Origin: an uncultured candidatus Porisulfidus sp.
GTDB taxonomy: Bacteria > Pseudomonadota > Gammaproteobacteria > Poriferisulfidales > Poriferisulfidaceae
Length of the DNA: 64,000 nt
Assembly: GCA_965214545.1 (NCBI GenBank)
Contig: OZ243950.1
Location: 708,813 to 772,812, forward strand
Reading direction: 5' to 3'
In this document: piece after piece, positions 2,631 through 62,435 of the stretch
Layout of the letters: the number at the start of each line of letters is the position of its first letter
How positions within the stretch are numbered: the stretch's first letter is position 1
Made by a program: the position numbers and the translations under genes
The notes under the pieces: generated by a model
The model's input: only the letters and a program-made list of their open reading frames with translations
What the model was told of the DNA's origin: nothing
The model's database searches: none

Positions 2631-2648
2631 GGCGCATATATATGCGCC
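2631..2648. promoter_or_regulatory. perfect 18-bp palindrome GGCGCATATATATGCGCC flanked by TTATACG direct repeats, about 65 bp upstream of the 2714 gene
   Basis: Read directly in a lower-GC intergenic region. Candidate operator overlapping a promoter. Confidence 0.3.
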
Positions 2649-2713
2649 ACTTTATACGGCAGTCGCAAATAGCAAGACCGAAAATACAGGCATAACCGGA
2701 AGGGAGAGCGGGA

Positions 2714-3475: not shown

Positions 3476-3553
3476 ATCGTACCCCAGCCAATCTACGCCT
3501 CTTGCAAAGTCTTTTGTCTGTGGCTACAATGAGGCTCTTCAAAGGAGGTTCAA

Positions 3554-3811: not shown

Positions 3812-3812
3812 T

Positions 3813-4082
3813 GTGCTGAATCTGGTCCAGTCCACGCAATTCAAGCGTGACGTCAAGCGCATGAAGAAGCGGGGCAAGGACATGTCCAAACTTCGTCGGC
3901 CGGTACTGACATTGATTCAGCAACTCCCACTGCCTGGTAGCCAACACGACCATCTGCTTCAAGGCGTCTGGAGAGGTTACCGCGAATTCCACATCGAGCC
4001 AGACTGGCTCGTGATCTATCGTGTCAAAGGCCGTGAACTACAAATGGCCCGCACCGGCTCCCACTCCGATCTCTTTGGGTAA
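3813..4082 (+). CDS. yafQ: type II toxin, YafQ/RelE family mRNA interferase (GTG start)
   Basis: Aligns with E. coli YafQ along its length: KDVKRMKKRGKDMSKL...HLLQGVWRGYREFHIEPDWLVIYR...RTGSHSDLFG. Confidence 0.85.
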   Translation: MLNLVQSTQFKRDVKRMKKRGKDMSKLRRPVLTLIQQLPLPGSQHDHLLQGVWRGYREFHIEPDWLVIYRVKGRELQMARTGSHSDLFG

Positions 4083-34945: not shown

Positions 34946-36070
34946 ATGCTGGTCTCCGGGGAGGCCTCCGGCGACCGCTACGCGGCAGAACTGGTCGAGG
35001 AACTTCGGGGGCGGCATCCTGCGTGGACCTGGTCCGGCATGGGCGGCGCAGCCTCGCGCGGGGCCGGCATCGAGCTGCAGGTCGACTCCACCGGGCTGGC
35101 CGTCGTCGGGCTGGTGGAGGTGCTGCGCCATTACCGGGAGATTCGCCGGGCACTGGGGGCCCTCAAGGCGCAGGTCCGGGCCCGCAGGCCCCGGCTGCTG
35201 GTGCTGATCGACTACCCGGAATTCAACCTGCGGCTCGCCCGGTTCGCGCATCGGCACGGCGTGCCGGTGCTGTTCTACATCAGCCCGCAAATCTGGGCCT
35301 GGCGGGCCTGGCGGGTGCACGCGATCCGGCGCCACGTCGACCACATGGCGGTGGTCTTCCCGTTTGAGCGGGATTTCTACGAGAAACACCGCGTCCCCGT
35401 CACCTATGTCGGGCACCCCCTGTGCGGACAGACACGCCCGACGCAGCCGCCCGAGGCCGTCCGCGCACGCTGGGGACTGGATCCCGAGCGCCCGGTGGTG
35501 GGCCTTTTTCCCGGCTCCCGGCGCAGCGAAATCGCCCACCTGATGCCGGTCTGCGCCGGGGCGGTGCGGGAACTGCGAGACCATCCCGCCCGACCGCAAT
35601 TCGCACTGGTGGTGCCGCCCGGGCTGAAACCCAACGACTACGCCCCGTGGCTGGGCGAACTGCCCGAAGTCCAATGCCTGCAGGAGCCGGTCTACGATGC
35701 CATGCAGGTGTGCGACATGGCGGCGGCGGCCTCCGGCACGGTCACGTTGCAGCTGGCCCTGATGCGCGTCCCGTTCTGCATGATCTATCGCCTGGCACCC
35801 CTGAGCTACTTATTGGCCCGCCTGCTGGTGCGCATCGACCGGTACTGCCTCGCGAACATCGTGGCAGGCGAAGACCTGGTTACCGAGTTGATCCAGGCCG
35901 ATGCGACGCCGCAACGGATTGCGGCCGCCCTCACGCCCTGGCTGGACGATCCGGCGAAACTTGATCCGGTGCGCGCGCGGCTGCAGAAAGTCGAGGAGCG
36001 GCTGGGGCCGGCAGCCGGCATGCGCCCACTTGCCGACTGCGCGGAACAGGTGATGTCGGCGTCCGGGTGA
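34946..36070 (+). CDS. lpxB: lipid-A-disaccharide synthase
   Basis: MLVSGEASGDRYAAELVEELR N-terminus and full-length LpxB similarity. An alternative GTG start lies about 27 nt upstream. Confidence 0.8.
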   Translation: MLVSGEASGDRYAAELVEELRGRHPAWTWSGMGGAASRGAGIELQVDSTGLAVVGLVEVLRHYREIRRALGALKAQVRARRPRLLVLIDYPEFNLRLARFAHRHGVPVLFYISPQIWAWRAWRVHAIRRHVDHMAVVFPFERDFYEKHRVPVTYVGHPLCGQTRPTQPPEAVRARWGLDPERPVVGLFPGSRRSEIAHLMPVCAGAVRELRDHPARPQFALVVPPGLKPNDYAPWLGELPEVQCLQEPVYDAMQVCDMAAAASGTVTLQLALMRVPFCMIYRLAPLSYLLARLLVRIDRYCLANIVAGEDLVTELIQADATPQRIAAALTPWLDDPAKLDPVRARLQKVEERLGPAAGMRPLADCAEQVMSASG

Positions 36071-36132
36071 TTCCGGGCGCAAGCGCCAGACAAAAACCCG
36101 GGAAAGCCCCGGCTTGCTGTCAGGTCTTCCGA

Positions 36133-36492
36133 CTAAGCCGGTGACTTGTCATCCGGATCGGCGGGGACGATCAGTTCCACCGAAGGATGGTCCGGAAACT
36201 TCGCGATCAGGCTCAGCCGTCCGCCCAAGGCTTCGACTTGCCGCCTGAGCGTCGAGACCAATAAGTCCTGGCGCGTCTCGATGCGCGAGATATTCTCCTG
36301 GGTAATTCCAAGGATCTCGGCAAGCTGCACCTGGGTCTGTTGCCGGAGCTTTCGCAGTTCCTGCAACGACATGATTTCGGCGATCAGTCCGTCCGTGCGT
36401 AATTCATCGCGGGAAGGCTGGCCGCTGGACGGCTTGACTGGCATCGTGCGGGGCTCCGGCAGCGGACGCTTTGGCTTGTCTTTGGTATTCAT
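36133..36492 (-). CDS. XRE-family helix-turn-helix protein (controller/antitoxin-like)
   Basis: LRKLRQQTQVQLAEILGITQENISRIE is a classic Cro/C1 HTH. Overlaps the preceding small ORF by ATGA. Confidence 0.7.
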   Translation of the reverse strand: MNTKDKPKRPLPEPRTMPVKPSSGQPSRDELRTDGLIAEIMSLQELRKLRQQTQVQLAEILGITQENISRIETRQDLLVSTLRRQVEALGGRLSLIAKFPDHPSVELIVPADPDDKSPA

Positions 36493-36794
36493 GGTGTTCT
36501 CCTTGCGCGAAACTCGCGAATGTTGGAATAGGTGGACTGGCGCTCTTGGTTAGTTCGCTTGTAGCCACGCCAGGTGAAGTCCGGGTAGTGATTCTGCTTT
36601 TCCGGCTCGACCAATTGCAGCCCCACGCTGCCGGCATAAGACGCAACCGCTTGCCTGGCCACAATTTCAAACAGAGTACTGATAACCTTGGTGTCGGAAC
36701 CCAAAGGATACACACGCGCCCGGCGATCCACGACCCCGCACAAGGAATAGCCGTTCTGGATTTCCGCAAGCGCATTCAGGATAAACTGCTTCAT
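36489..36794 (-). CDS. hypothetical 101-aa protein co-operonic with the Dam-like MTase and the XRE HTH (possible toxin or nuclease remnant)
   Basis: 4-nt overlaps on both sides. No family recognised from the sequence. Confidence 0.4.
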   Translation of the reverse strand: MKQFILNALAEIQNGYSLCGVVDRRARVYPLGSDTKVISTLFEIVARQAVASYAGSVGLQLVEPEKQNHYPDFTWRGYKRTNQERQSTYSNIREFRARRTP

Positions 36795-37621
36795 CCCACA
36801 ACCAATGCCTCCGTCATGCTGTTCCGCAAGTCCTCTGTTGATCCTAAATGGTAAAAGTGCGGGAAGGTTCGAACCTCATAATCGGAAAATTCTTCATGTA
36901 ATCGGTTGTTCTTCCGATATTTGTTCTCAGACCACATTGAATAGAGAAATGGACATGGCAAAGCCTTCAAACTACGCTCCAGTTGTGTTGCGTCTGTGTC
37001 GGTCCAAGAATTGAAATAATCCGTGAATCGCCCGGCGTATGGCGGGTCGCAATAGACGAAATCACCTTCGCCAGCTTTGCCCAGAATGTCGGTCCAATCT
37101 GCACAGACAAACGTCCACGCCTTTCCTTCCATACACTCTGCGGCCCGCTGCACTTGGTTGCAAATCTTCGTGATGTAGGCAGGGCGGTAGCGTTCCGGCT
37201 TTCGGCAGAATGGGGTATTGAAGCGCCCCTTCTTGTTGAAGCGCACCAAGCCGTTGAAGCACGCTCGATTCAGGAATAGAAAGTCATGCGGATCGCCACT
37301 GTCGTTGAAGCGTTCCCGGACTCGGTAGAAGTGATCCTGCCCGTCCCGCAGAAGGCGTGCGCCTTCTCGCTCCAGGAACGCTCGCACTGTCGCGCTGGTG
37401 AGGGTCCCGGCCTGTATCGCCGCATAGAAGCGCACCAAGTGCGGGTTTGCATCGCCTAGCAGTGCGCGTTCAGGCTTGATGTTGAAGGGGACGACGGCAG
37501 ACCCCAAGAAAGGCTCTATCCAGCGACCAGAGCCATCCCAATCGACACTATCCCGGATGAACGGAATCGCTTTCGTCTTGATCCCTTGTATCTTGAGCGG
37601 CGGGACTTGAACCGCGCTCAT
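36791..37621 (-). CDS. DNA N6-adenine methyltransferase, Dam/D12 class
   Basis: DPPY catalytic motif (FVYCDPPYAGRF) with an upstream AdoMet-binding region. 276 aa. Confidence 0.8.
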   Translation of the reverse strand: MSAVQVPPLKIQGIKTKAIPFIRDSVDWDGSGRWIEPFLGSAVVPFNIKPERALLGDANPHLVRFYAAIQAGTLTSATVRAFLEREGARLLRDGQDHFYRVRERFNDSGDPHDFLFLNRACFNGLVRFNKKGRFNTPFCRKPERYRPAYITKICNQVQRAAECMEGKAWTFVCADWTDILGKAGEGDFVYCDPPYAGRFTDYFNSWTDTDATQLERSLKALPCPFLYSMWSENKYRKNNRLHEEFSDYEVRTFPHFYHLGSTEDLRNSMTEALVVG

Positions 37622-37804
37622 CTCCTTGCCCCCGAATCCAGCCCGTTATCTACAATCAGCTCAGCATACTTGGGCCTCTTGCGCGCCATGCCAGCGACCA
37701 CGACGGACACCCTCTCGCATCGCCTGACCCCGGCCATCAAGACTCCAGGTTCCAGTCCGACAAGCGAATCAAGTGCAACGCCCCTTCCCATGTGGATAAT
37801 GTAA

Positions 37805-37851
37805 TCTACTGATTCTATACTGTCAAGGGCATGATTGGCGGTGCGGCATGT
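37805..37851. repeat. left copy of an imperfect 47-bp direct repeat (CTACTGATTCTATACTGTCAAGGGCATGATTGGCGGTGCGGCATGTC)
   Basis: About 85% identical to 38690..38737. The two copies bracket an 840-bp low-GC segment. Confidence 0.6.
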
Positions 37852-38033
37852 CTGCTTCCTCTCTCAGATCCCGCCGGTTGCCGGAATCGTTGCAGTTACT
37901 AATTGCAACCAGGCTGAACAAGCAACTACCGCCCTTTTTCTTTGTGCCTATGGGCAAGATGTGTGAGAGTTACTGTGGTAGAGTCTGGGGGGTCATAACC
38001 AATCTTGCAGAATCGCGGCCCAGACTGGGCAAA

Positions 38034-38348
38034 CTATCCAAAAACTGCTGCCAGTACTGCAAGCATAACCGCAATCACAACACCAATCAACCATCTTTGC
38101 ATACTTGCTTCCCTAGCCGAAATCAGAGTTTTCACGCTTTCTAAATCTGCTTTTGTCGGCAAATAATCAAGTCTGGTTTTTACTTCCCCCATTTGAATTT
38201 CAAGATGGCGCAAACGATTTCCAGTCCCATCGTCGTCGCCCCCTCCCCTGTTATCAGGTGACTCTGATGGTTCATCAGTAGTAACTGCTTTTAGATGACT
38301 TTCAGCCACGGCTATATTAGGAGCTAGTCTGCTTCGAGCCATTCCCAC
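38034..38348 (-). CDS. small phage-like membrane protein (coiled coil + C-terminal TM; XhlA/holin-associated-like architecture)
   Basis: 104 aa; C-terminal WLIGVVIAVMLAVLAAVFG helix. Low GC. Confidence 0.35.
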   Translation of the reverse strand: MGMARSRLAPNIAVAESHLKAVTTDEPSESPDNRGGGDDDGTGNRLRHLEIQMGEVKTRLDYLPTKADLESVKTLISAREASMQRWLIGVVIAVMLAVLAAVFG

Positions 38349-38596
38349 AGGGATTTTTGTGTGTGGCCTGAAAATGCCGAGTTCATTTTGAACACAGCGC
38401 CAGAGGATTGCCCAACGCGACTGTCACCTTTGATACCGACTGCTGTTGCAATTTCGCTGGTTACGGCAGAGGGTTCTTCTGTGCGAATCAGATAAAAGGT
38501 GTCAGTATATTTATATCGGTCTTTGTATGCGTCAAACAGTCGCTTCTCGACCTCTTCGTTCGGCTCCCACAGAACGACAGCAAACAGTTTTTTCAT
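38324..38596 (-). CDS. hypothetical protein (low-GC, accessory)
   Basis: 90-aa ORF inside the repeat-flanked low-GC segment. Confidence 0.3.
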   Translation of the reverse strand: MKKLFAVVLWEPNEEVEKRLFDAYKDRYKYTDTFYLIRTEEPSAVTSEIATAVGIKGDSRVGQSSGAVFKMNSAFSGHTQKSLWEWLEAD

Positions 38597-38663
38597 GGCG
38601 AGGTATCCGAGTCGGATGATGCATTATAGCAGGGCTTGACTTTCTCCCTGCTTTCCTGAGAGC

Positions 38664-38682
38664 ACGCGGTTTGTCAACCTTT
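38664..38682. repeat. copy 3 (variant) of the junction motif: CGCGGTTTGTCAACCTTTT
   Basis: Matches GCGCGTTTGTCAACCTTT with one indel. Located between the lpxA stop and the accessory segment. Confidence 0.4.
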
Positions 38683-38689
38683 TACAGAA

Positions 38690-38737
38690 TCCACACAACC
38701 TACTGGTTCTATAGCGGTAAGGAGCATGATTGGCAGT
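38690..38737. repeat. right copy of the 47-bp direct repeat
   Basis: CTACTGGTTCTATAGCGGTAAGGAGCATGATTGGCAGTGCGGCATGCC. Confidence 0.6.
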
Positions 38738-38759
38738 GCGGCATGCCCCGCCAATCGAG

Positions 38760-39590
38760 TCAGTCCGAACTTTTCTCGCGGATGATGCCGCGGCGGCTCT
38801 CCGCGATGAACACTCGCATCTGTTCCACTTCCGGATGCTCCCCAGCCAGTTGCCGGATCTCGTCCTCCGACGGCCCGCCCGATACGCGGACCAGCAATTT
38901 GTAGGCCCGCGACAAGGCCTCCATCGTCTCCTCGGGGAAGCCGGCCCGGCGCAATCCTTCACGGTTCAGCCCGTAAGGCCGGGCCAGGTTGCCCGACGCC
39001 AGCACGAACGGCGGCAGATCCTTGTTCAAGGCGGAGCCCATACCGCTGAACGCATGGCGCCCGATGCGACAGAACTGGTGCACCAGGGTGAAGCCGCCCA
39101 AGCTCGCGTGGTCCCCGACCTCGACATGGCCGGCCAGCGTCGCGCCGTTGGCGAAGGTCGCGTCGTTCCCGATTATGCAGTCGTGCGCAATGTGCACGTA
39201 CGCCATGATCCAGTTCCGGCTGCCGACCCGGGTGCAGTTCTCGCCCTGGGCCGTGCCGCAATTGAGGGTCGCGAATTCGCGGATGGTGTTGCCGTCGCCG
39301 ATCACCAGTTCGCTGTCCTCGCCGGCGTACTTCTTGTCCTGCGGGACCTCGCCGACCGAGGCGAACTGGAAGATCCGGTTCTCCCGGCCCACGGTGGTGC
39401 GCCCGGTCACCACGGCGTGCGGGCCCACCCAGGTGTCGGCGCCGATCCGCACGTGCGGGCCGATGACCGCATACGGGCCGATGTCCGCCGTCGGGTCGAT
39501 CTGCGCCCCGGCGTCCACCACGGCCGTCGGATGAATGCTCAAGTCTCGAAGCCCGGTTACGCCTCTGCAGGCAGTTCCTTGAACATGCAC
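38760..39590 (-). CDS. lpxA: UDP-N-acetylglucosamine O-acyltransferase
   Basis: Left-handed beta-helix hexapeptide repeats; aligns with E. coli LpxA. The true start may be the TTG near 39530 (SIHPTAVVD). Confidence 0.9.
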   Translation of the reverse strand: MHVQGTACRGVTGLRDLSIHPTAVVDAGAQIDPTADIGPYAVIGPHVRIGADTWVGPHAVVTGRTTVGRENRIFQFASVGEVPQDKKYAGEDSELVIGDGNTIREFATLNCGTAQGENCTRVGSRNWIMAYVHIAHDCIIGNDATFANGATLAGHVEVGDHASLGGFTLVHQFCRIGRHAFSGMGSALNKDLPPFVLASGNLARPYGLNREGLRRAGFPEETMEALSRAYKLLVRVSGGPSEDEIRQLAGEHPEVEQMRVFIAESRRGIIREKSSD

Positions 39591-50193: not shown

Positions 50194-51258
50194 TTACTTG
50201 GCCGCCGGTTCAGGTTCAGGCTCAGGTTCAGGTTCGGGCTCGGGTTCGGGCGCGGGCTCAGGCTCGGCGGCCTGTTCGGGCTCGGACGCCTCGTCCGCGT
50301 GATCCGCGCCATCCGCGGCCGCCGGAGGTTCGGCCGGGGCCTCGGCACCGGGGTCTGTCGCATCGCCAAGGGCTTCGGCCGGGGCATCGCCGTCAGCCGG
50401 TCCGTCGGAATTGTCTGAATCCTGCGCTGCTGCAGGTTCCGCCGGCGCCTCGCCTACGGCCTCCCCGGGCGGCTCGTCCGCCTTCGACTCGACGCGCAAC
50501 TTGGCGCGGCGCCCCTTGCGCTTCACGGACGGCTCCCGGGAGGCGGACGCGTCGACCACGACCCCTTGTTCCTCCGCCTGCTTTTTCCCTTCCTGGATCG
50601 CCTGGCTGATCACGTCCATGTACAGCCGGATCGAGCGGATCGCGTCGTCGTTGCCCGGGATGATCCGGCCGATGCCTTCGATCGAGCTGTTGCTGTCGAC
50701 CACCGCCACCACCGGGATGTCCAGGCGGCGGGCCTCCCGCACCGCGATGTTCTCGTAGCGGACATCGATCACGAACAGGGCATCCGGCAGGCGCTCCATG
50801 GCCTCGATGCCGCCCAGGCTGCGTTCCAGCTTGATCTTCTCCCGGGTCAGGCGCAACGCCTCCTTCTTGCTGATCCGCGCCATCAGGTTCTCGCCCTCCA
50901 TGCGCTTGAGGTCCTGCAGGCGCTTGATCGAGTTGCGCACGGTGTGGAAGTTGGTCAGCGTGCCGCCCAGCCAGCGCTGCGAGACGTACGGCATCCCGCA
51001 CTCCTCGGCCTTGGCCCGGACGATGTCCTGTGCCGCCCGCTTGGTGCCGACGATCAGGATCGTCTTGCCCTCGGCGGCCCATTGGCGCACTTGGTCGGCA
51101 GCCTCGTCCAGCATGCGCTGGGTGATTTCGAGGTTGATGATGTGGATTTTGTTGCGCTCGCCGAAGATGTACGGCGCCATGCTGGGATTCCAGTACCGGG
51201 TCTGATGTCCGAAGTGGACACCGGCTTCCAGCATTTCACGCAAGGTGGCACACGGCAT
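50194..51258 (-). CDS. rpsB: 30S ribosomal protein S2 with a ~110-aa acidic low-complexity C-terminal extension ending in (PE)n
   Basis: S2 core over aa 1-245. C-terminus ...[29 protein letters not shown] is encoded by a GGTTCA/GGCTCG-like hexanucleotide tandem array around 50205..50270. Confidence 0.9.
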
Positions 51259-51622: not shown

Positions 51623-53695
51623 TTAATCTGCGTAGTAAAGGCCTACGGCTGCGCCGTGGGTGTCATCGGGATCGTCAAACCTTACGCCAAAGCTTACGCT
51701 AAAGCTGCCATAAAAGCCGTCAGGTGCTTCACCACTTGTGTCCCCATACGCCGTCGCATCCCAACTGCCGGCGGGCTGAGAACCAACATAAATAACACCG
51801 GGCGAGACCACTCCTTGATTTATGCGCGCTTCGAGCAGCCTGAGACTCCAGCCGGCGTCCACGTGACCACTGCCCTGGCCGGCCACGGCCCTGAAATTGT
51901 CAATTTTGCCCTCCAGGCCCGGCAACACAAAGTCCGAAAAGTCCTGCGGGTTAAACCAACCGAATGTCGCCACCAGCTTCACGTCCGCCTCGAAATGGCC
52001 GGACGCGTATACCGGATCGTCTCCTGTACCTGTGTTGCGTGCAGACAGGCCGCGCGCCTTGCCGGTGTAGGTGGCGTTGGTGGGAGCGGGAAAGTAGAAG
52101 CCTAGGGAGTTCACTGGTACTTGTGGTGGCCCGACCACGCCGACGCGGCGTTGGAGTGTAAGGTCATCATCGACACCCGTCAGCCACATGCCGTAATCGA
52201 CATAGCTGGCCACCTCGTAGGTCCCGTCGCCGTCGGAATCCTCATAGCGGGCCTCTGTGGAGTCGTATCCAATACTGGCCTGCCTGCTGCTCTTCACGGC
52301 AGGAGTGAAATACCAGCCCACGTCAAAAAGATCGTCTCCTGTTAGTCCACAGAAACCTGGGGTATCGCAGTAGAGCGTCCCTTCAATGCCATTCAACTGG
52401 CCATTGACGGTGTCTCGGACGGATAAACTGCCTAGTTGCGACCCATCCGCTGGGACGAAGTCAGACGTTTTCAATCCAGTCAAAACGATCGCAGGATGAT
52501 CTGCTGGAAGGTGGATAGGCGTCGAGCCATCTGCCTTGAAAAGGGAACGACGCTGGAGATTCCAGGCATCGTTGCCGTTGGCGATGTCCTCGAACGTCAT
52601 CGTTTCTGCCGGTCTGGGGGCACGGGCGAAGACATAGTCCATGGTGTCGAGGTCGGTAAGGGCGTCGGTAACAGCCCATTTTTCTCGGACTGGGGGCTTG
52701 GCGCTGTGGAGGTAGAGCGGGACGCTAGCAAGCAAAGCGAACACCTGCTTCGCCTTTTCGCTTTCGGTGTCCTCATCCACTGCGGTCTGCCAGTCATCGA
52801 GGCTGTCTTTGAGAAGCGTCCAGATTTCATCAATATCGTCTCGATACCCCTCGGCCTCATCAGCCTCATTTCTCTTTGTGACAAGTTCTGATTCCGCTTC
52901 AAAGGCCTGATTTTGAAGATCAATGACTTCCTCACGTTTCACAGAAAGCTCCTTATCTTTCTCAGTGGCCTCCATCCGCTTGGACTCGACCAGCGCCTTC
53001 ATCTCCGCATAGGTGTAGTCCCTACCCATATAAGTGCGGGTCCCCGTCCTTTCTTCATTTTCCCAGACTACGATCACGTCCTCAATATCTATCACTTCCA
53101 GTTCGAGATCCTCAATTTTGCCCTCAATCTCTATCGCTTCCTGTTCGGCCTCCGAAACCTGCCCCTTGAGCTTCTCTACCTCTCCATCCTTCCCACCGAG
53201 GCGATCGACCTCTTTCTCTAAATTTTCGTACGCATATTGAGCAACCTGGAGATAGCCCTCGATTTCATCGATATCTTCTTTAATCCCCTCGAGATTGTCG
53301 AGGGCGTTTTTTGCGATGCCCCCGGACACGCCCATGGCGCTGCTGATGATTGTTGTTGGCGAAGCCGTAATAAACTCGCCAATGGAGGCACCTTTGCTGG
53401 AGTCGCCGACCTTGTCATTTACCATGCCCTCGGTCGTTCCCGCATCATCCTTGGCCTGTGCCGCGTCGGTCAACCCATAGGTGCTGGGATCAACGCCGTT
53501 GACCGGGTCGGGACCGGGAGTGGTAGTACCACCGCCACCAGTGCCCGTGCCGCCGCCACCGGTGCCAGTGCCACCGCCAGTGCCGCTGCTAGTGCCGGTG
53601 TTGCTGGCGACCGTCCCGCCGCCGCCGCCGCCGCCACCACAGGCGGAGAGCGCCAAAGTCAACAAGATCAACGCAGAATATTTTGAGAGTCTCAT
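51623..53695 (-). CDS. large surface/periplasmic lipoprotein: lipobox LSAC + poly-Gly/Thr linker, acidic coiled-coil region, C-terminal beta-barrel-like domain reminiscent of TbpB/fHbp-type surface lipoprotein handle domains
   Basis: MRLSKYSALILLTLALSAC-GGGGGGGG...; strong GGAGG SD 9 nt upstream of this ATG. C-terminal FYGSFSVSFGVRFDD...GAAVGLYYAD resembles the FYG...AAVVFGA signature of TbpB-like barrels. Confidence 0.7.
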   Translation of the reverse strand: MRLSKYSALILLTLALSACGGGGGGGGTVASNTGTSSGTGGGTGTGGGGTGTGGGGTTTPGPDPVNGVDPSTYGLTDAAQAKDDAGTTEGMVNDKVGDSSKGASIGEFITASPTTIISSAMGVSGGIAKNALDNLEGIKEDIDEIEGYLQVAQYAYENLEKEVDRLGGKDGEVEKLKGQVSEAEQEAIEIEGKIEDLELEVIDIEDVIVVWENEERTGTRTYMGRDYTYAEMKALVESKRMEATEKDKELSVKREEVIDLQNQAFEAESELVTKRNEADEAEGYRDDIDEIWTLLKDSLDDWQTAVDEDTESEKAKQVFALLASVPLYLHSAKPPVREKWAVTDALTDLDTMDYVFARAPRPAETMTFEDIANGNDAWNLQRRSLFKADGSTPIHLPADHPAIVLTGLKTSDFVPADGSQLGSLSVRDTVNGQLNGIEGTLYCDTPGFCGLTGDDLFDVGWYFTPAVKSSRQASIGYDSTEARYEDSDGDGTYEVASYVDYGMWLTGVDDDLTLQRRVGVVGPPQVPVNSLGFYFPAPTNATYTGKARGLSARNTGTGDDPVYASGHFEADVKLVATFGWFNPQDFSDFVLPGLEGKIDNFRAVAGQGSGHVDAGWSLRLLEARINQGVVSPGVIYVGSQPAGSWDATAYGDTSGEAPDGFYGSFSVSFGVRFDDPDDTHGAAVGLYYAD

Positions 53696-53952
53696 GGAAT
53701 TTACCTCCTCAGGATTCGAGATGTCAGGAACAGGCCGGAGCCGCGCAGTGCCGCCTAGACAGCCGAAGAGGTCCCTCGGCAGCCCGCCGGGCACAAGACC
53801 GCAAGGCCGACCCGATACCGGATCGCCCGCGCACGGTCGCCCATGGCTGGAAAACAGAAAAAGCCGGAATGCTTCCGGCTCGGCTAAAGAGTAAGAAAAA
53901 ATCAGGCTGCGTAACGCAACCTGCGGCCTGTAGCGGCCCTAGTTCAGTTTCA

Positions 53953-53966
53953 GGGGGGGGGGGGGG
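53953..53966. repeat. homopolymeric G14 tract in the 530-bp region between the NarL-type regulator gene and the lipoprotein gene (about 258 bp upstream of the lipoprotein ATG)
   Basis: Counted directly in the sequence. Confidence 0.9.
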
Positions 53967-54225
53967 CTATGGTTCGGCCAGCGCTCAAAAGCGCGGTCCA
54001 CAGGCGCACCATACGCGGCGACGAACGGAAGTTCGTCCCGGAATTCGTTGATTTTGAAATCACGTTCATGGTGCCCGCTTTCGGTCGGCTTATTCTAACC
54101 CAATATCTGGGCCTACGCGCAAGCCCAAAACACAAGCCCAAAATATTTGCTCGTGACCGTCACGCATGTCTCTGGCGGTCATTCCGCGCGCAACACGAAA
54201 AACTCTTGATCAACCATTTCGATCC

Positions 54226-54915
54226 CTACTCTGGCTCGTTGTTCTCCCGACCCGACGCCGCGGTCCGACTCCCCCAGCCATGCTCGACCGCGAGCACCGC
54301 CGCCGCAACCCGGGACGTCACCGCCAGTTTTCGCAGGATCGCCTTGACGTGAACCTTGACCGTGCCCTCGGAAATGCCCAGATTGTTTCCGATTCCGCGA
54401 TTGCTCAAGCCTTCTGCCAGCAGGGCCAGGATCTCTCGCTCGCGAGGGGTGAGGACATCGAACGGGCTGTCGTCGCTCTCGGGAGGTTCCGGCTCCCGGC
54501 CCTGTACCACCCGGGCCAGGGCCGGCGCCAGGCTCGGCGCCACCACGGCCTCGCCCGCCTCGATCGAACGCAACGCCATCACCAAGGCATCCGGCTCCAT
54601 GTCCTTCAGCAAATACCCGCTGGCCCCGGAGCGCAGCGCTTCAATCAAATCCTGCTCTTCGTCGCTCGTGGTCAGCATCACCACCGGCGGGCCATTCTCA
54701 TCTTCCCGCAATTTTCGCAGGATCGCGAGCCCATCGGTCTGCGGCAGGCGCAAATCCAGTAACACGATGTCCGGGCGGCGCCGGGCGATCGCCGCATAAC
54801 CGGATTCGGCATCGCCCACCGAATCCAGCACTTCCAGCCCATGCCGCTCCAGCAAGCCCTGCAGGCCCTCCCGGAACAAGGTGTGGTCATCAATGACCGT
54901 GACCGTCAGCGTCAT
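54226..54915 (-). CDS. two-component response regulator, NarL/FixJ family (REC + LuxR-type HTH)
   Basis: Phospho-acceptor region DIVLLDLRLPQTDG and C-terminal LTPREREILALLAEGLSNRGIGNNLGISEGTVKVH. Confidence 0.85.
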   Translation of the reverse strand: MTLTVTVIDDHTLFREGLQGLLERHGLEVLDSVGDAESGYAAIARRRPDIVLLDLRLPQTDGLAILRKLREDENGPPVVMLTTSDEEQDLIEALRSGASGYLLKDMEPDALVMALRSIEAGEAVVAPSLAPALARVVQGREPEPPESDDSPFDVLTPREREILALLAEGLSNRGIGNNLGISEGTVKVHVKAILRKLAVTSRVAAAVLAVEHGWGSRTAASGRENNEPE

Positions 54916-55835
54916 GCCGCCTGGGCCCTCTCCGGCCTGGCCTTGAATTCCAGCGAGACCCGCACGCCCTCGTCCGGCTCGCTCTCCACCCGCACGCGCC
55001 CGCCCAGGCGCAGGGCCCGGTCCTGCAACAGGCTCAATCCGATGTGGCTGCCGGCCCCTTCCCGCGGAGGGCTCGAAAAACCCACCCCGTCATCTTCCAC
55101 CAAGATCCGGCAATTCCCGCTCTCGGCCTCGCCTGAAACGAGGACGCGCACCGTGCTGGCCTGCGCATGCTTGCGCGCATTGGCCAAGGCTTCCTGCACG
55201 ATGCGCACGACCTGCAACTCGTGCTCGGCCAGCAGCTTCAGGCCTTCCCACTGGATCTGCAGCAACACTCGGACATCCGGGCAGTCCCGCCGAAAGCGTT
55301 CCACGGTCCGCTCGATGGCCGGCAGCAAGCCCGCTTCGCTGATCGGCACGCGGAAATGCGCGATCAGTTCCCGCAGCTCGATATTGGCTTCTTCCAGGCT
55401 CGCCTCGATCCGTTCGAGTTCCTCCCAGGTCTGCTCCTCGTCCCCCCGGTGCAGGGTCTCGTCCAGCACCCGCACCTGCATCTTGATCCCGGCCAAGGTC
55501 TGCGCCAGGGAATCATGCAGTTCCCCAGACAAGCGGGTGCGCTCCTTCATGGCCGTGTTGTCGCTGAATTCCTGCAACTGCTCTTCCGTGTCGCGCGACA
55601 GGGTCTGAACCATCTCGGCGAATACGTTCAGGTCGGTCGCGAGTTCCGCAAAATCACCCTTCGGCGGCACCGGCACCCGCGCCGACAGATCACCCCCGCG
55701 CATGCGGTACACCCATTGCCGGATGGCTTCGTAGGGAACCAGCCGGTTCCGGTACAGCCACATCCCGAACACGGCGGCCCCTCCCAGAAGCAGCCCGGAC
55801 ACAATATATCCCAGTGCGTCCCATCCCGGCATCAC
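54912..55835 (-). CDS. sensor histidine kinase, HisKA_3 (NarX/UhpB-type), single N-terminal TM and no periplasmic sensor domain
   Basis: H-box ELHDSLAQTL and an HATPase_c domain (ILVEDDGVGF...GSHIGLSLL). Confidence 0.85.
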   Translation of the reverse strand: MMPGWDALGYIVSGLLLGGAAVFGMWLYRNRLVPYEAIRQWVYRMRGGDLSARVPVPPKGDFAELATDLNVFAEMVQTLSRDTEEQLQEFSDNTAMKERTRLSGELHDSLAQTLAGIKMQVRVLDETLHRGDEEQTWEELERIEASLEEANIELRELIAHFRVPISEAGLLPAIERTVERFRRDCPDVRVLLQIQWEGLKLLAEHELQVVRIVQEALANARKHAQASTVRVLVSGEAESGNCRILVEDDGVGFSSPPREGAGSHIGLSLLQDRALRLGGRVRVESEPDEGVRVSLEFKARPERAQAA

Positions 55836-56200
55836 GCTTTCGGCGGCACATACGCAGGATCGTTCGGGTTGAGAAAAATAAACTGCTTGTTGCCCGGCTC
55901 CAGTTCCACGAAATCCACGGTCATCCCCCGCGCCAGGGCCAGGCTGTCGGCCCCGACCACCACGGGAAGCTTTCGCAGGCTGAATCTCTGGTCTCCCTCG
56001 TGACTCTCCGCGTCGAACCCCATCGCATACTGGAGACTGCCGTCTTCGAGCTTGCGCACCGCGAAACGCAAGGCCACGCCTTCCTCGCCTTCCGGCAGCT
56101 GTGCGCGGACCTGGTCCGCCGCCGGTTGGGTCAAAGTCAAGAAATCGGCCACGGTATCACCGCCCTTCTTCAGAGAGACCCGGAACGCCGTCCGGGCCAT
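55832..56200 (-). CDS. HesB/IscA-fold protein lacking all three cluster-ligating cysteines, co-operonic with the two-component system
   Basis: Aligns with IscA (LRFAVRKLEDGSLQYAMGFD ~ [21 protein letters not shown]; ends ...FIFLNPNDP versus ...FKFTNPNVKDECGCG). Contains no Cys. Its stop overlaps the HK start. Confidence 0.55.
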   Translation of the reverse strand: MARTAFRVSLKKGGDTVADFLTLTQPAADQVRAQLPEGEEGVALRFAVRKLEDGSLQYAMGFDAESHEGDQRFSLRKLPVVVGADSLALARGMTVDFVELEPGNKQFIFLNPNDPAYVPPKA

Positions 56201-56517
56201 CGATACCGGGTGTAGATTTTTCTTTCGCGCTCATTGGCTTTCCTAATGCTGACGATCGATAGGATCCATCCCTTGGAGTCCAGGCTGGAATCACCTTTCT
56301 CCCATCAAGAAACCCGGAAGCGCCAGCGATTTCATGTTACCACTAAACCTCGCTGATCTTCGTCCTGTTGGGTTCGGCGTACCGTCTGGATTTTCGGCCC
56401 TGCTCCCCGCCTGAACTCTGAATTCTTTGAAGGACTCCAAACCCATGCGTGGATCACATTTTTCGCCTCCCACATTGTTCGGAATAGTGCAGGAATGCGA
56501 ACAAATCTATATTTATT

Positions 56518-56541
56518 TACATTTTTTGCTACAAAAATGTA
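56518..56541. promoter_or_regulatory. AT-rich imperfect palindrome TACATTTTTTGCTACAAAAATGTA about 300 bp upstream of mtoX
   Basis: Read directly. Lies inside an otherwise GC-rich genome, in the 640-bp intergenic region. Confidence 0.3.
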
Positions 56542-56841
56542 CAACGTGTTTTGCATTTTTCCCGTTTAACCCTGGTGCGAGACGAAACACACCGTCCATT
56601 CAACGAGAGAGGAAGCACAAGCCTTAAGGGGGTAGCCCCATCTGCCCAGACCCGGCAACGCCTCGCCAATGCCATCGGCCACCGGGCCGGCACCCGGAGG
56701 AACAGACCGGCTTGGCCCCAAACTTGACGCACGACAGGATTCGTCCATAATTGGAGTCGGCGATTGAGGCGCCCGCCGGTTTATGCGGCGGCGTGGTCCT
56801 GGTGGCCTGCGAATCTAACTATAAACTCCATGAGGAAACTT

Positions 56842-58185
56842 ATGAGAAAAACAACTTTTTGCACGGGGCTGGCAATGGCAGCTGCGATGGCGTGGACCGT
56901 TCCAGCGCTTGCAGATGAAACCTGCATGTCGCCGTACATTGCCAAGATCCAAGGCCAGGAAGACTATGTCTATGTCTGGACCCTGGGCGTTGAAGGCATG
57001 GGAGACGAGCAGGACAAGCTGGTTACCATCGACACCAACCCCGAATCCAAAACCTTCGGCCAAGTGGTCAGCGTCCTGTCCGTCGGCGGGCGCAACGAGG
57101 CCCACCATTCCGGACTGAGCGACGACCGCCACTACCTGTGGGCCGGCGGGCTGGACTCGAACAAGATCTTCGTGTTCGACATCCACTCCAACCCGCGGCA
57201 GCCAAAACTGCACAAGGTCATCACCGACTTCGTCGAGAAAAGCGGCGGAATGGTCGGCCCGCACACGTTCTACGCCCTGCCCGGGCGGGTCATGATTTCG
57301 GCGCTGTCCAACAACGCCGATCACGGCGGACGCACCGGACTGGCTGAATACAACAACGACGGCGAGTTCGTGGCCAGCTACTGGATGCCGACCGACGAAG
57401 ACCTGCGTGGCGCGGTCAAGACCGGCCAGCACGCCGACGGCTACGGCTACGACCTTCGGGTCAAGGCCGAAAGCAACGTAATGCTGACCTCCTCCTTCAC
57501 CGGTTGGTCCAACTACATGATGGACTTCGGCCAGATGCTGCAGGACAGCACCGCCATGCAACGCTTCGGCAACACCATGGTGGTGTGGGACATGCATGCC
57601 CGCACGCCGTTGAAGGTGCTGGACGTGCCGGGTGCGCCGCTGGAGATCCGCTGCGCCTGGGACCCGGACCACCGCTACTGCTTCACCACGACGGCCCTGA
57701 CCTCCCAGCTCTGGCTGCTGTACGAGGATGAAGCCGGCGAATGGCACGGCAAGGCCGTCGCCGACGTCGGGGTGCCTTCCGAGATCCCGCTGCCGGTGGA
57801 TATTTCCATCACGGCCGACGACAACGGGCTGTGGATCAACACCTTCATGGACGGCAAGACCCGTTTCTTCGACATCTCCGACCCGCATGCACCCAAGCAG
57901 GTCTTCGAGGAAGTGATCGGAAGCCAGGTCAACATGGTCTCCCAGAGTTGGGACGGCGATCGCGTGTACTTCTCCAGCTCCCTGCTGAACAACTGGGACA
58001 AGACCGGTGAAGCCGACGAACAGTACGTCAAGCTCTACCACTGGGATGGCGAAGAACTCGCGCATCAGTGGACGGTTGATTTCTATGCCGAGCAGTTGGG
58101 CCGGTCGCACCAGATGCGTTTCGGTGCCTATGCCCTGTACGGGAAGCGCCCGGATGCTGACGCCAAGGTCGCGATGGCCGAATAA
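56842..58185 (+). CDS. mtoX: SBP56-family selenium-binding protein / methanethiol oxidase
   Basis: Shares RQPKLHKVI and the overall SBP56 beta-propeller sequence. Signal peptide MRKTTFCTGLAMAAAMAWTVPALA. GAGGAAA SD before this ATG. Confidence 0.85.
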   Translation: MRKTTFCTGLAMAAAMAWTVPALADETCMSPYIAKIQGQEDYVYVWTLGVEGMGDEQDKLVTIDTNPESKTFGQVVSVLSVGGRNEAHHSGLSDDRHYLWAGGLDSNKIFVFDIHSNPRQPKLHKVITDFVEKSGGMVGPHTFYALPGRVMISALSNNADHGGRTGLAEYNNDGEFVASYWMPTDEDLRGAVKTGQHADGYGYDLRVKAESNVMLTSSFTGWSNYMMDFGQMLQDSTAMQRFGNTMVVWDMHARTPLKVLDVPGAPLEIRCAWDPDHRYCFTTTALTSQLWLLYEDEAGEWHGKAVADVGVPSEIPLPVDISITADDNGLWINTFMDGKTRFFDISDPHAPKQVFEEVIGSQVNMVSQSWDGDRVYFSSSLLNNWDKTGEADEQYVKLYHWDGEELAHQWTVDFYAEQLGRSHQMRFGAYALYGKRPDADAKVAMAE

Positions 58186-58220
58186 TCGGTCGCGGCCTTC
58201 GGGCCAAACGAAAATGGAAA

Positions 58221-58250
58221 GCCGCCCTGCCCGTCAGGGCGGTTTTCTCT
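58221..58250 (+). terminator. rho-independent terminator/attenuator between mtoX and sco1
   Basis: GCCGCCCTG-CCCGT-CAGGGCGG stem-loop followed by TTTTCTCTT. Confidence 0.5.
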
Positions 58251-58291
58251 TAAAACCCGCCTGCATCGACCATACCAGTAAAATACCTTCC

Positions 58292-58981
58292 ATGAAACAT
58301 TTAAACTGCATCCGTACTCTAGGGCTGTCTGCCCTGATTCTGGTCTCGGGCGGATTCGAGGCCGTCGCGCAAGACGACATCCTCGCGCCCGGATGGCGGA
58401 ACCTGAGTTACGAGCCCCCCGCGGTGGGCAGCTACCGGTTGCCTCCCATCACCCATGCCTCCGATGGGGCCGTGCTCCTGGAAGACGGCCGGGAGTCGCA
58501 GCTGTTCGACCTGATGGGCGACCGCTTCGTGCTGTTCAGCTTCATCTACACCCGATGCAGCGACATCAACGGCTGCCCGCTCGCCAACGCGGTCTTCCAC
58601 AAGCTCCAGGCGAAACTGCAAGCGCGCCCGGACATCGCCGAGGCCACGCGACTGTTATCCATGTCGTTCGACCCGGAACGCGACACCCCCGAGGTCATGC
58701 GGGAGTTCGGGAAAGGGCTCGGCGGCGACGGCGTGGACTGGCAGTTCCTCACTGCGCGGGATCGCGAGGCCCTGCAACCCATTCTGGATGACTACGGGCA
58801 ATACACCATGCGCGAATACGATGAAAGCGGCGAATACACCGGGGATTTCGCCCATATGCTGCGGGTGTTCCTGGTCGACCGCGAACTGCGCATCCGCAAC
58901 ATCTACAGCGTCGCGTTCCTGCATGCCGACATCCTGATCAACGACCTGGAGACTCTCCTCCTGGAGTCTCCTTCCAGCTGA
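58292..58981 (+). CDS. SCO1/SenC-family copper chaperone (thioredoxin fold, CxxxC)
   Basis: FVLFSFIYTRCSDINGCP motif. N-terminal signal/anchor MKHLNCIRTLGLSALILVSG. Confidence 0.8.
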   Translation: MKHLNCIRTLGLSALILVSGGFEAVAQDDILAPGWRNLSYEPPAVGSYRLPPITHASDGAVLLEDGRESQLFDLMGDRFVLFSFIYTRCSDINGCPLANAVFHKLQAKLQARPDIAEATRLLSMSFDPERDTPEVMREFGKGLGGDGVDWQFLTARDREALQPILDDYGQYTMREYDESGEYTGDFAHMLRVFLVDRELRIRNIYSVAFLHADILINDLETLLLESPSS

Positions 58982-58989
58982 CCCCCGCC

Positions 58990-60354
58990 ATGCGCCCCTC
59001 GGCACGGATGCGCCCTCGCACCCTTGTCGCGGCCTTTGCCGCGGCTGGTTTTTGCGCCCTCGCCCTCGCCGAGACCAGCGGCGAGCTGGACGCCCCGGAA
59101 GAATTCGACGCCGGCCACACGCAGGGGCCGGGAGACGTCAAGGACGGCTACGAAAGCAAGGATTACGAGACCCGCTCGCGCAGCCTGCTGAAGCGGCGGG
59201 GCATCAAGAAGGACCTGATCCGTTTTGCCCAGAACCCGCCGTTGGGCCTGCCGCCGATCCCGATCCCGGCTGAAAACCCGCTGACCCGCGCCAAGATCGA
59301 CCTCGGCCGGAAACTGTTCTTCGATCGTCGCCTGTCGATCAACGACACCTTCGCCTGCGCAACCTGCCACATCCCGGAGCAGGGCTTCACCAACAACGAG
59401 ATGCGCACCGCGGTCGGCGTGGAAGGCCGCTCGGTGCTGCGCAACTCTCCCACGCTCTACAACGTCGCCTACCTGACGCGGCTGTTCCTGGACGGGCGTG
59501 AAATCAGCCTGGAAAACCAGGTCTGGCAGCCGATCACCGCACACAACGAAATGGCGGCGCCCTCGATCGGCTGGATCATCAACAAGATCGGCCGCATGCG
59601 CGACTACGACGGCTTGTTCGAGAAGGCCTTCGACGGCACCGGCCCGACCATACTCACGATCGGCTGGGCACTGGCCAGCTACCAGCGCACCCTGCTGGCG
59701 GCCGACTCGCCGTTCGACCGGTGGTATTTCGGCAACCAGACCGACGCGGTCGACGAATCCGTCAAGCGCGGCTTCGGGGTGTTCTCAGGGAAAGCCCAGT
59801 GCATCGTGTGCCACACCATGCAGAAGGAGTCCGCCCTGTTCACCGACCAGAAATTCCACAATACGGGCCTGGGCTACATGATCTCGTTCAGCAAGGGCGC
59901 CAAGGACGCGCCCAAGACCACCCGCGTCCAGCTCGCCCCCGGCGTGTTCGTGGACGTCTCGAACGAGAAGATCAAGGCCGTCTCGCAACAGAAACTGCCG
60001 AACGATCTCGGCTTGTACCGGGTCACCGAAAACCCGAACGACCGCTGGCGGTTCCGGACCCAGAGCCTGCGCAACGTGGAACTGACCGCCCCCTACATGC
60101 ACAACGGCACGTTCGACACCCTGCGCGAAGTCATCGACTTCTACGACCAGGGCGGCATCCCGAACGAGTTGCTGTCTCCCTTCATCGCTCCGCTCAACCT
60201 CAGCGAACAAGACAAGCAGGACCTGGAAGCCTTCCTGCTCTCCCTGACCGGCCGCACCGTCCCGGAGATCGTGGCCGATGCCTTCGCCGCGCCGATCGGC
60301 GACCTGAGCCTGGAAGACCCCAACTGGGCGCACGAAGAAACGCTGGGATACTGA
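58990..60354 (+). CDS. di-haem cytochrome c peroxidase / MauG-family protein
   Basis: Two CxxCH motifs (CATCH, CIVCH) with CCP/MauG-like spacing. Signal peptide present. Confidence 0.8.
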   Translation: MRPSARMRPRTLVAAFAAAGFCALALAETSGELDAPEEFDAGHTQGPGDVKDGYESKDYETRSRSLLKRRGIKKDLIRFAQNPPLGLPPIPIPAENPLTRAKIDLGRKLFFDRRLSINDTFACATCHIPEQGFTNNEMRTAVGVEGRSVLRNSPTLYNVAYLTRLFLDGREISLENQVWQPITAHNEMAAPSIGWIINKIGRMRDYDGLFEKAFDGTGPTILTIGWALASYQRTLLAADSPFDRWYFGNQTDAVDESVKRGFGVFSGKAQCIVCHTMQKESALFTDQKFHNTGLGYMISFSKGAKDAPKTTRVQLAPGVFVDVSNEKIKAVSQQKLPNDLGLYRVTENPNDRWRFRTQSLRNVELTAPYMHNGTFDTLREVIDFYDQGGIPNELLSPFIAPLNLSEQDKQDLEAFLLSLTGRTVPEIVADAFAAPIGDLSLEDPNWAHEETLGY

Positions 60355-62073: not shown

Positions 62074-62149
62074 TGGTGGGCCATCAGGGACTCGAACCCC
62101 GAACCTGCTGATTAAGAGTCAGTTGCTCTACCAATTGAGCTAATGGCCC
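62074..62149 (-). tRNA. tRNA-Lys (anticodon CUU)
   Basis: Reverse complement GGGCCATTAGCTCAATTGGTAGAGCAACTGACTCTTAATCAGCAGGTTCGGGGTTCGAGTCCCTGATGGCCCACCA. Cloverleaf folds; anticodon loop CTCTTAA. Confidence 0.85.
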
Positions 62150-62158
62150 ATCCTCGGA

Positions 62159-62235
62159 TGGGGTGAGCGACGGGATTTGAACCCGCGACCTCAGGAGCCA
62201 CAATCCTGTGCTCTACCGACTGAGCTACGCTCACC
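62159..62235 (-). tRNA. tRNA-His (anticodon GUG, with G-1)
   Basis: Reverse complement GGTGAGCGTAGCTCAGTCGGTAGAGCACAGGATTGTGGCTCCTGAGGTCGCGGGTTCAAATCCCGTCGCTCACCCCA. Confidence 0.9.
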
Positions 62236-62246
62236 GACGACCGACT

Positions 62247-62322
62247 GGCGCGCCCGGCAGGACTCGAACCTGCGACCCTCGGTTTAGAAGACCGATGCTC
62301 TAATCCACTGAGCTACGGGCGC
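62247..62322 (-). tRNA. tRNA-Arg (anticodon UCU)
   Basis: Reverse complement GCGCCCGTAGCTCAGTGGATTAGAGCATCGGTCTTCTAAACCGAGGGTCGCAGGTTCGAGTCCTGCCGGGCGCGCCA. Confidence 0.9.
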
Positions 62323-62358
62323 CATCATCCTTGAGTCGAGGCTCCGGACGCTGTCTGC

Positions 62359-62435
<77 letters not shown>

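Follow-up and report, generated by a model that had tools for sequence, protein, structure and literature searches.

A lipoprotein gene of a predicted Slam-type surface family in sponge-associated bacteria and its conserved, poly-C-containing 5′ leader

Work on Slam-dependent, or type-11, secretion has to our knowledge been confined almost entirely to animal pathogens, and TbpB-like sequence models serve to recognise its cargo. The Neisseria lipoproteins HpuA, fHbp, NHBA and TbpB begin with a lipobox followed by a flexible Gly-rich tether, and continue into a β handle and a C-terminal 8-stranded barrel. The cargo of the type 11 secretion system (T11SS) described by Grossman et al. in 2025 has a variable N-terminus, sometimes disordered or long and α-helical, followed by a handle or pedestal and a C-terminal 8-stranded barrel (PMC12282271). 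Gene adjacency to Slam was used by Hooda et al. in 2017 to define Slam-dependent lipoproteins (PMC5449769). Here we describe a lipoprotein gene in a 64,000-nucleotide stretch of DNA (hereafter the window) from an uncultured candidatus Porisulfidus sp. (contig OZ243950.1, positions 708,813 to 772,812), the product of which shares both the layout of the Neisseria proteins and the domain order of the T11SS cargo. Judging from its predicted structure and the gene neighborhoods of its homologues, it is very probably a surface lipoprotein of the Slam/T11SS type that belongs to a new sequence family.

The 5′ region of the gene carries a run of 14 C residues on the sense strand (C14), which invites comparison with homopolymeric tracts in other systems. 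In Bordetella, the C-stretch of the fim genes is part of the promoter, where it separates the activator site from the -10 element. In the Vlp and Vsa systems of Mycoplasma, families of variable lipoprotein genes retain conserved 5′ expression regions. In Neisseria hpuA and hmbR, a homopolymeric G run inside the open reading frame (ORF) switches the reading frame (PMC3786947). BvgA is a NarL-family regulator and the Bordetella fim promoters carry the C-stretch (PMC9708447, PMC1891110). The present locus differs from all three in its arrangement. On balance we favor, with moderate confidence, the reading that this Slam-type lipoprotein possesses its own transcribed and attenuating leader, in which the slippage-prone C run likely tunes read-through.

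The coding sequence runs on the minus strand from an ATG at 53695-53693 to a stop codon at 51625-51623, with a Shine-Dalgarno sequence (GAGGAGG, 53704-53710, minus strand) located 8 nt ahead of the ATG; the database protein P0001 is identical to its product. The N-terminus of the protein, MRLSKYSALILLTLALSAC, is followed by exactly eight glycines, and residues 20~66 comprise 51% glycine and 23% threonine. The adjacent segment of residues 70~325 is highly acidic, with a calculated isoelectric point of 4.15 and 65 Asp and Glu versus 27 Lys and Arg residues. In the full-length AlphaFold2 model, which was computed with 39 homologues as input and has a mean predicted local distance difference test score (pLDDT) of 79, this segment folds into a stalk of long antiparallel helices (residues 75~323), the tip of which is formed by a small polar β-hairpin. 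The stalk is followed by a β-rich handle domain, which holds the most conserved motifs of the family (VFARA, GTLYC, WYFTP and DYGMWL), and by a C-terminal barrel of eight predicted strands (residues 539~555, 562~581, 593~603, 618~624, 629~637, 640~650, 660~670 and 679~689). The C-terminal motifs FYG...GAAVGLYYAD, the latter of which ends the protein, rank with the best-conserved columns of the family alignment. When the C-terminal 346 residues were modeled alone, the same β handle and eight barrel strands were obtained, with a pLDDT of 84.

A first-pass annotation of this DNA, made from the letters alone, had listed a lipoprotein gene, a G14 tract and a response regulator/histidine kinase pair; all three are present, but on the minus strand, and their strand and coordinates are corrected here. 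Its lipobox (LSAC) with Gly8 and Gly/Thr repeats can be read directly from the sequence, and the long acidic region that it noted corresponds to the helical stalk. The C-terminal barrel, which it had likened to TbpB and fHbp, is borne out by the models as an 8-stranded barrel behind a β handle, with NHBA, fHbp, HpuA and TbpB as the best folds in the Protein Data Bank (PDB).

Structural similarity search against the PDB using Foldseek and the C-terminal model revealed NHBA (6cuj), fHbp (5nqy and 5nqz) and HpuA (9mr0_C) as the six top-ranked matches, with E-values of 3e-4 to 1e-3, every one of them a Neisseria Slam-dependent lipoprotein. The seventh-ranked match drops to an E-value of 0.04. The search with the full-length model also returned TbpB (9clm_B); the window protein is predicted to have a single handle-plus-barrel lobe and not the bilobed form of a TbpB-type receptor. 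Several results weigh against this assignment. The fold matches are weak in absolute terms, with template-modeling (TM) scores of 0.2-0.5 and a high root-mean-square deviation. Neither the barrel nor the handle plus barrel matched any Pfam or NCBIfam model even at E≤10, and the C-terminal alignment, used as a profile against the PDB, had 0 matches. Alignment by hhalign against a manually entered fHbp sequence reached a probability of 2% over 12 columns, which cover only the motif ATYxGxAxG. Likewise, the TbpB_B_D, lipoprotein C and GNA1870 profiles found no significant match in the window protein. Given the modest TM scores and an fHbp alignment confined to ATYxGxAxG, the models support a resemblance in fold to the Neisseria Slam cargo, but not membership in its sequence families.

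Other similarities of the protein were set aside. Matches to SMC, Rad50 and influenza HA2 in the Pfam, NCBIfam and PDB sequence searches were rejected as compositional coiled-coil noise. For the helical domain, a ClyA-type toxin was considered, as Foldseek aligned it with AhlB and SmhB at an E-value of ~3e-3 and TM scores of 0.45-0.49. The tip hairpin (ERTGTRTYMGRDYTY) is polar and varies among the homologues, and we therefore read the helical domain as a stalk and not as a pore-former; the likeness to ClyA is probably that of a generic long helical hairpin.

The gene neighborhoods of the homologues also point to Slam. A PF04575 gene (SlipAM, with TPR_Slam) lies downstream of a family member on the same strand in five independent loci, at a distance of 178 bp in L013 and 172 bp in L014, and within ~0.9-7 kb in L008, L009 and L012, so that the homologues in all five show the adjacency used by Hooda et al. 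(PMC5449769). In addition, Slam homologues and family members were found together on short contigs. On the other side of the family gene, a Porin_4-type porin gene is located directly upstream and on the same strand in at least six independent loci (L012, 8652-9869; L018, 5836-7140; L013, 2274-3899; also L006, L007, L009 and L014), some of these copies being split or fragmentary. No TonB-dependent receptor was found in any fetched locus; one further contig retrieved for its context measured 2 kb and held no neighboring genes. This organization suggests a porin-lipoprotein-Slam module in place of the TonB-receptor pairing of TbpB. Compared to the Neisseria Slam lipoproteins, which provide its best structural matches and which its relatives resemble in adjoining Slam genes, the window protein has no detectable sequence homology and adds an acidic helical stalk of 250 residues; moreover, the recurrent partner of the family is a Porin_4-type porin instead of a TonB-dependent receptor, and the window locus is devoid of Slam.

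This last point argues against Slam-dependent export in the source organism itself. The 64-kb window contains no PF04575 gene among its large ORFs and no tblastn match to Slam in six frames, none of the gammaproteobacterial copies (window, L001, L003 and L011) has a Slam gene within 10 kb, and none of the 120 best Slam homologues, from a search with 215 further matches, is on the 1.85-Mb contig of the window. The first-pass annotation had proposed a Slam-type surface lipoprotein, and this assignment is supported by the barrel and handle model, the Neisseria fold matches and the Slam genes beside homologues. Alternatively, the protein could be an ordinary outer-membrane lipoprotein facing the periplasm, the barrel of which merely resembles Slam cargo, with no surface export in this gammaproteobacterial lineage. 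The missing Slam near any gammaproteobacterial copy would fit this alternative, as would the lack of sequence homology to known cargo barrels and the presence of family members on a cyanobacterium-like contig without Slam. However, Slam is immediately downstream in several homologous loci, the combination of tether, handle and C-terminal 8-stranded barrel matches the described cargo, and a long flexible tether plus stalk would make little sense in the periplasm; we consider a periplasmic location quite unlikely. We infer surface export in the source organism, where the lipoprotein would be anchored by its Cys to the outer membrane and would extend through the Gly/Thr tether, the acidic helical stalk and the β handle to the barrel as the domain that defines it as Slam cargo.

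The window lipoprotein has 39 close homologues. With a profile of its C-terminal 346 residues, 1241 cluster representatives were recovered at E≤1e-3, of which 160 remained at E≤1e-30. In 35 of the 39 close homologues the lipobox is present with two or more glycines after it; among 80 distant relatives, 64 have a lipobox, mostly with Gly runs after it. Pfam scanning of these 80 relatives gave no domain over the C-terminal region in any of them, and none of the TbpB/fHbp type. Several groups of homologues combine identical signal peptides with differing bodies. The annotated sources are Arenicellales, Candidatus Poriferihabitaceae, Paracoccaceae, Rhodobacter, other alphaproteobacterial metagenome-assembled genomes and, for one homologue, Candidatus Synechococcus spongiarum, names that point to an association with sponges. 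Scans of JGI metagenomes found no protein relatives by the patterns tried. Altogether, the sequence searches outline a large, Pfam-invisible family that occurs mainly in sponge-associated Gammaproteobacteria and Alphaproteobacteria and extends to a Synechococcus spongiarum-like cyanobacterium.

Despite sharing its domain order with the T11SS cargo of Grossman et al., the window family differs in that this cargo was found via TbpBBD or lipoprotein C homology, by models that the window family fails (PMC12282271). The same study reported that Slam genes of marine Rhodobacteraceae (cluster 3) co-occur with recognisable barrels only rarely (PMC12282271). With its cargo architecture, Slam genes beside relatives from Alphaproteobacteria and other sponge-associated sources, and invisibility to these models, the family is a candidate for part of the cargo missed by model-based surveys.

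The second conserved module of the locus is the 5′ leader, which recurs upstream of the paralogue P0002 in locus L001. Over ~470 nt that span the upstream region and the beginning of the gene, the two copies are 89% identical (89-100% between the leader and signal-peptide regions), whereas the proteins share only 42% identity. The neighbors of L001 are entirely different, consisting of an Na/Ala symporter gene and phoB/phoR/pst, and the similarity begins abruptly at ~54103, at ...TATTGGGTTAGAATAAGCC. Similar to the Vlp and Vsa genes of Mycoplasma, a near-identical 5′ region thus precedes mature proteins that have diverged; unlike them, the proteins are of Slam type and from Gram-negative bacteria, and only two copies of the cassette are known. 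No recombination system was identified for the window/L001 cassette. The leader DNA had no match in a scan of JGI metagenomes, and the leader with its poly-C run and tandem terminators matched no RNA family of Rfam at gathering or permissive thresholds.

In both copies the C run, C14 in the window and C15 in L001, is located 30 nt upstream of two tandem intrinsic terminators, and the substitutions in the terminator stems preserve pairing. The consensus fold of the two leaders contains 66 pairs, 0 of which are broken by 11 stem substitutions (9 one-sided and 1 double compensatory), and leaves the C run and 13 nt unpaired just 5′ of the terminators. As L001 has no co-directional gene ahead of the cassette, the terminators should be part of a transcript that is initiated within the cassette and contains the C run. 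In our proposed mechanism, transcription of the leader would begin at a promoter on the 5′ edge of the cassette, and the RNA would fold into several conserved hairpins, presenting a single-stranded C14 immediately before the two terminators. With the run at this position, expression of the lipoprotein would probably need read-through of the attenuators, and the length of the slippage-prone C run, 14 here and 15 in the sister copy, would likely modulate this read-through. The outcome would be a heritable yet reversible variation in surface display. We infer leader transcription, the position of its promoter and any effect of tract length from this arrangement.

Several observations weigh against the proposed mechanism. 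The structural counts come from only two sequences, both of which were also used to predict the structure, and the whole-leader fold is no better than that of shuffled sequence (z = -1.6). The consensus promoter scan found none for the leader and did not report the -10-like TAGAAT, which was read by eye and has no good -35 element, with TTGCGC lying 19 nt upstream. Between terminator 2 and the ATG there is likewise no promoter-like site, save one overlapping the ribosome-binding site. Promoters of the sigma-54, sigma-32 and Bordetella-like types were sought by eye around the tract, and none fitted.

The same layout could also be that of an independent small RNA (sRNA) gene of ~190-240 nt, ending at terminator 1 or 2, in which a single-stranded C14 seed would pair with G-rich targets in trans, and the lipoprotein would be expressed from a separate, non-consensus promoter within the 155 nt that follow terminator 2. 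A typical sRNA has this layout of conserved hairpins, then an unpaired stretch (here the C run and 13 nt) and Rho-independent terminators, L001 has no co-directional upstream gene for the terminators to serve, and runs of G9-G12 do occur in the mRNAs of other family members. But the element is fused to the lipoprotein gene in both of the two copies, the required promoter has no counterpart between terminator 2 and the ATG, Rfam gave no match and no target was identified; furthermore, the poly-Gly segment of the window gene, encoded by (GGC)6, would pair poorly with C14. We regard a separate sRNA as unlikely, and retain the attenuating leader.

How tract length might act within such a leader is suggested by a possible ORF of 39 codons, the last codons of which are the C tract (...APPPP-TGA). 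With C11, C14 or C17 this ORF stops immediately past the tract, with C12, C15 or C18 four codons further on, and with C13 or C16 it crosses both terminators and ends at a TGA that is 28 nt away from the start codon of the lipoprotein; the dependence is the same in the window and in L001. A conserved leader peptide is nevertheless improbable, as the substitutions relative to L001 are mostly non-synonymous in both candidate frames, and this poor conservation makes coding doubtful. Poly-C is also the classical ligand of Rho. That the leader acts as a phase-variable riboregulator, in which the poly-C before the tandem terminators sets attenuation via the ORF frame, Rho loading or antiterminator pairing, is a tentative proposal to which we assign a low probability.

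The tract itself stands out from the surrounding sequence. G/C runs in the window reach a maximum of 8 nt except for this G14 and a G20 at 17000-17019, and against this run-length distribution the G14 is too extreme for a chance feature. In 327 kb of window and fetched loci, 11 G/C runs are 9 nt or longer, and 7 of them fall within -300 to +110 of the starts of family genes (binomial P ~5e-11), a value that counts two homologous locus pairs and possibly by-products of Gly (GGG) or Pro (CCC) codons, and is weakened to that extent. An unrelated alphaproteobacterial locus, L008, has a G15 located 278-292 nt upstream of its family gene. In L003, L010 and L011, an intragenic G run codes for poly-Gly directly after the lipobox Cys. 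The G11 of L010 (9656-9760) keeps the reading frame, whereas with the G12 of L011 (9633-9760) and the G9 of L003 (8737-8860) the signal peptide runs into a stop codon (...SACGGGGWKQ, then stop) and the mature protein lies in another frame. The two frameshifted genes are either phase-OFF alleles or homopolymer errors of assembly.

These intragenic runs, which code for the poly-Gly tether, resemble hpuA and hmbR (PMC3786947) in that the G run lies inside the ORF. The window gene differs, its Gly8 being encoded as GGT(GGC)6GGG, a trinucleotide repeat with no homopolymer, and its homopolymer lying 258 nt upstream in the leader. Therefore, the window gene cannot frameshift at its poly-Gly segment, and a switch, if there is one, would have to act otherwise than by simply shifting the frame of the lipoprotein ORF. 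Similar runs are found in the 5′ regions of other surface genes. The G20 (C20 in the sense direction) is located between a strong sigma-70-like promoter identified by eye (TTGAAA-18-TACAAT, ~17103-17074) and the GTG start at 16963 of a gene for a trimeric autotransporter adhesin with collagen repeats and a YadA anchor (region 15810-17103), and from its sequence looks like another candidate contingency locus. In L011, an autotransporter gene (760-3828, minus strand), carried by the same conjugative element as the family paralogue there, has a 14-nt run at 3804-3817 (C14 on the plus strand, G14 in the sense direction), 12 nt inside its 5′ end.

Alternatively, the C tract has no regulatory role and is neutral, hypermutable or partly artefactual, and expression of the lipoprotein is constitutive or conventionally controlled. 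Metagenome assemblies are prone to errors in homopolymer length, and the C14/C15 difference, which rests on two long-read assemblies, may include such errors. The tract is neither in a sigma-70 spacer nor in the lipoprotein ORF, and the orientation differs among loci, the sense strand carrying C in the window and in L001, and G in L008. On the other hand, two loci assembled independently have a tract at the same position of a conserved leader, the tract is an extreme outlier among the run lengths of the window, both long runs of the window are in the 5′ regions of surface-protein genes, and the 5′ ends of family genes show a strong enrichment of such runs. A tract without function is thus rather unlikely, though it is an alternative to be taken seriously. 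The first-pass annotation had located the 14-nt run correctly in the upstream region and had proposed phase regulation; the differing tract lengths and the enrichment speak for the latter, the absence of a recognisable promoter around the tract against it, and phase variation mediated by the tract is plausible to us, if somewhat short of probable.

The same annotation had assigned control of the gene to a dedicated two-component system. The pair is indeed upstream in the same orientation, and the spacer between the stop codon of the regulator and the lipoprotein ATG measures 530 bp, as had been noted. The regulator gene (54226-54915, minus strand) encodes REC and GerE domains, with NarL as the best NCBIfam match (198 bits, below the cut-off), and the kinase gene (54912-55835, minus strand) encodes HAMP, HisKA_3 and HATPase_c domains without a periplasmic sensor domain; a small Fe-S_biosyn-like gene (55832-56200) precedes them on the same strand. 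Under such a model the NarL-type system would control the lipoprotein directly, with the spacing of the activator site determined by the homopolymer, as for BvgA and the fim C-stretch (PMC9708447, PMC1891110). In its favor, the regulator gene ends upstream on the same strand with no strong terminator found directly after it, and as in Bordetella fim2 and fim3 about 14 C residues precede a gene for a surface structure near a gene for a NarL-family regulator. Unlike the fim promoters, however, the window tract is followed by two terminators and not by a -10 element, and the regulator is not conserved as a partner of the gene. Orthologues of the kinase are 75-85% identical in three related genomes (L015-L017), where a divergent SBP56-SCO1-MauG-AhpC unit is followed by the Fe-S-like/kinase/regulator operon and then by one or two Porin_O_P genes, with no lipoprotein anywhere in this block. 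L001, the sole other locus with the same upstream cassette, has no two-component system. Direct control by the NarL-type system is thus very unlikely, and in terms of gene order the two-component system appears to be a chance neighbor of the lipoprotein gene rather than a dedicated one; transcription may nevertheless read through from the regulator into the leader.

The DNA similarity between the window and the three related genomes ends at 54230, at the stop codon of the regulator, which indicates that the lipoprotein cassette and the rpsB operon were joined to the regulator by a lineage-specific rearrangement. From this synteny the window gene appears to be a lineage-specific insertion or rearrangement between the Fe-S-like/kinase/regulator operon and the rpsB operon, and it would have arrived together with its own leader of 408 bp. 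A foreign origin is further indicated by the GC content at third codon positions, 0.63 in the lipoprotein gene versus 0.8-0.9 in neighboring housekeeping genes, and by the paralogue P0027 (L011, 1-21830), which is located within an integrative conjugative element with integrase, TraG, TraC and TraU. In L010, the family gene (9656-12214) is on a 2.98-Mb high-coverage contig among cyanobacterial-looking neighbors (sll0997_C, DUF3288 and AbrB-like), and the next gene encodes a 490-aa all-TPR protein; this context suggests transfer across phyla, the recipient lineage being one for which Slam is not known.

Table 1. Positions of the lipoprotein gene, its domains and the elements of its 5′ region in the window
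Feature	Positions	Strand	Basis
Lipoprotein coding sequence, 690 aa plus stop	51623..53695	-	Sequence, GC content at third codon positions, identity to P0001
Signal peptide with lipobox L-S-A-C, Cys19	53639..53695	-	Read from sequence
Gly8 and Gly/Thr-rich disordered tether, aa 20-66	53498..53638	-	Composition; pLDDT <50 for residues 1-66
Acidic helical stalk, aa 70-325	52721..53488	-	AlphaFold2 helices 129-168, 170-213, 229-305
β-rich handle domain, aa 350-535	52091..52648	-	AlphaFold2 and family alignment
C-terminal 8-stranded β-barrel, aa 536-690	51626..52090	-	AlphaFold2, pLDDT ~90
GC-rich hairpin, 14 nt past the lipoprotein stop, without U-tail, partly conserved in L001	51583..51609	-	
Conserved 5′ leader cassette, 408 bp	53696..54103	-	89% identical to upstream region of paralogue P0002, L001
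-10-like TAGAAT, candidate leader promoter	54092..54097	-	Read by eye; not reported by consensus scan
Possible leader ORF of 39 codons, ATG 54069	53950..54069	-	
C14 on sense strand (G14 on plus strand), 258-271 nt upstream of ATG	53953..53966	-	Run counts; predicted single-stranded
Intrinsic terminator 1, CAGGTTGCG-TTA-CGCAGCCTG then T-run	53893..53923	-	Conserved in L001, pair-preserving substitutions
Intrinsic terminator 2, GAGCCGGAA-GCA-TTCCGGCTT then TTTCTGTTTT	53851..53881	-	Conserved in L001
NarL-family regulator and HAMP/HisKA_3 kinase, adjacent but outside the cassette	54226..55835	-	

The Fe-S_biosyn-like/kinase/regulator operon lies back-to-back with the unit of SBP56 (methanethiol-oxidase-like), SCO1, MauG and AhpC in four genomes (window 54226-60354; L015-L017), and this cluster is the more likely regulon of the two-component system. 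On the downstream side of the lipoprotein gene lies the rpsB-tsf-pyrH-frr-uppS-cdsA cluster. Its rpsB product (50194-51258) is 354 aa long and bears a long acidic C-terminal extension of Pro/Glu repeats, which is unusual for ribosomal protein S2. Four tRNA genes are arranged in tandem on the minus strand at 62077-62435. Three islands of low GC content (52-60% versus ~68%) are located at 36000-39000, 2000-4000 and 12000-14000, and an AAA-ATPase_like/PDDEXK_9 gene (11908-13473) is inside one of them; the islands may be further horizontally acquired segments.

Based on the predicted structures and the gene neighborhoods, we propose that the window family represents previously unannotated Slam-type surface lipoproteins from sponge-associated bacteria. 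If they are indeed mobile, multi-copy surface lipoproteins with slippage-prone runs at their 5′ ends, this would speak for stochastic variation of the symbiont surface, with a bearing on persistence in a host that feeds by phagocytosing bacteria. Taken together, the poly-C attenuator, the intragenic G runs and the C20 in the adhesin leader would, if confirmed in this role, amount to a Neisseria-like “phasome” of surface antigens in sponge symbionts.

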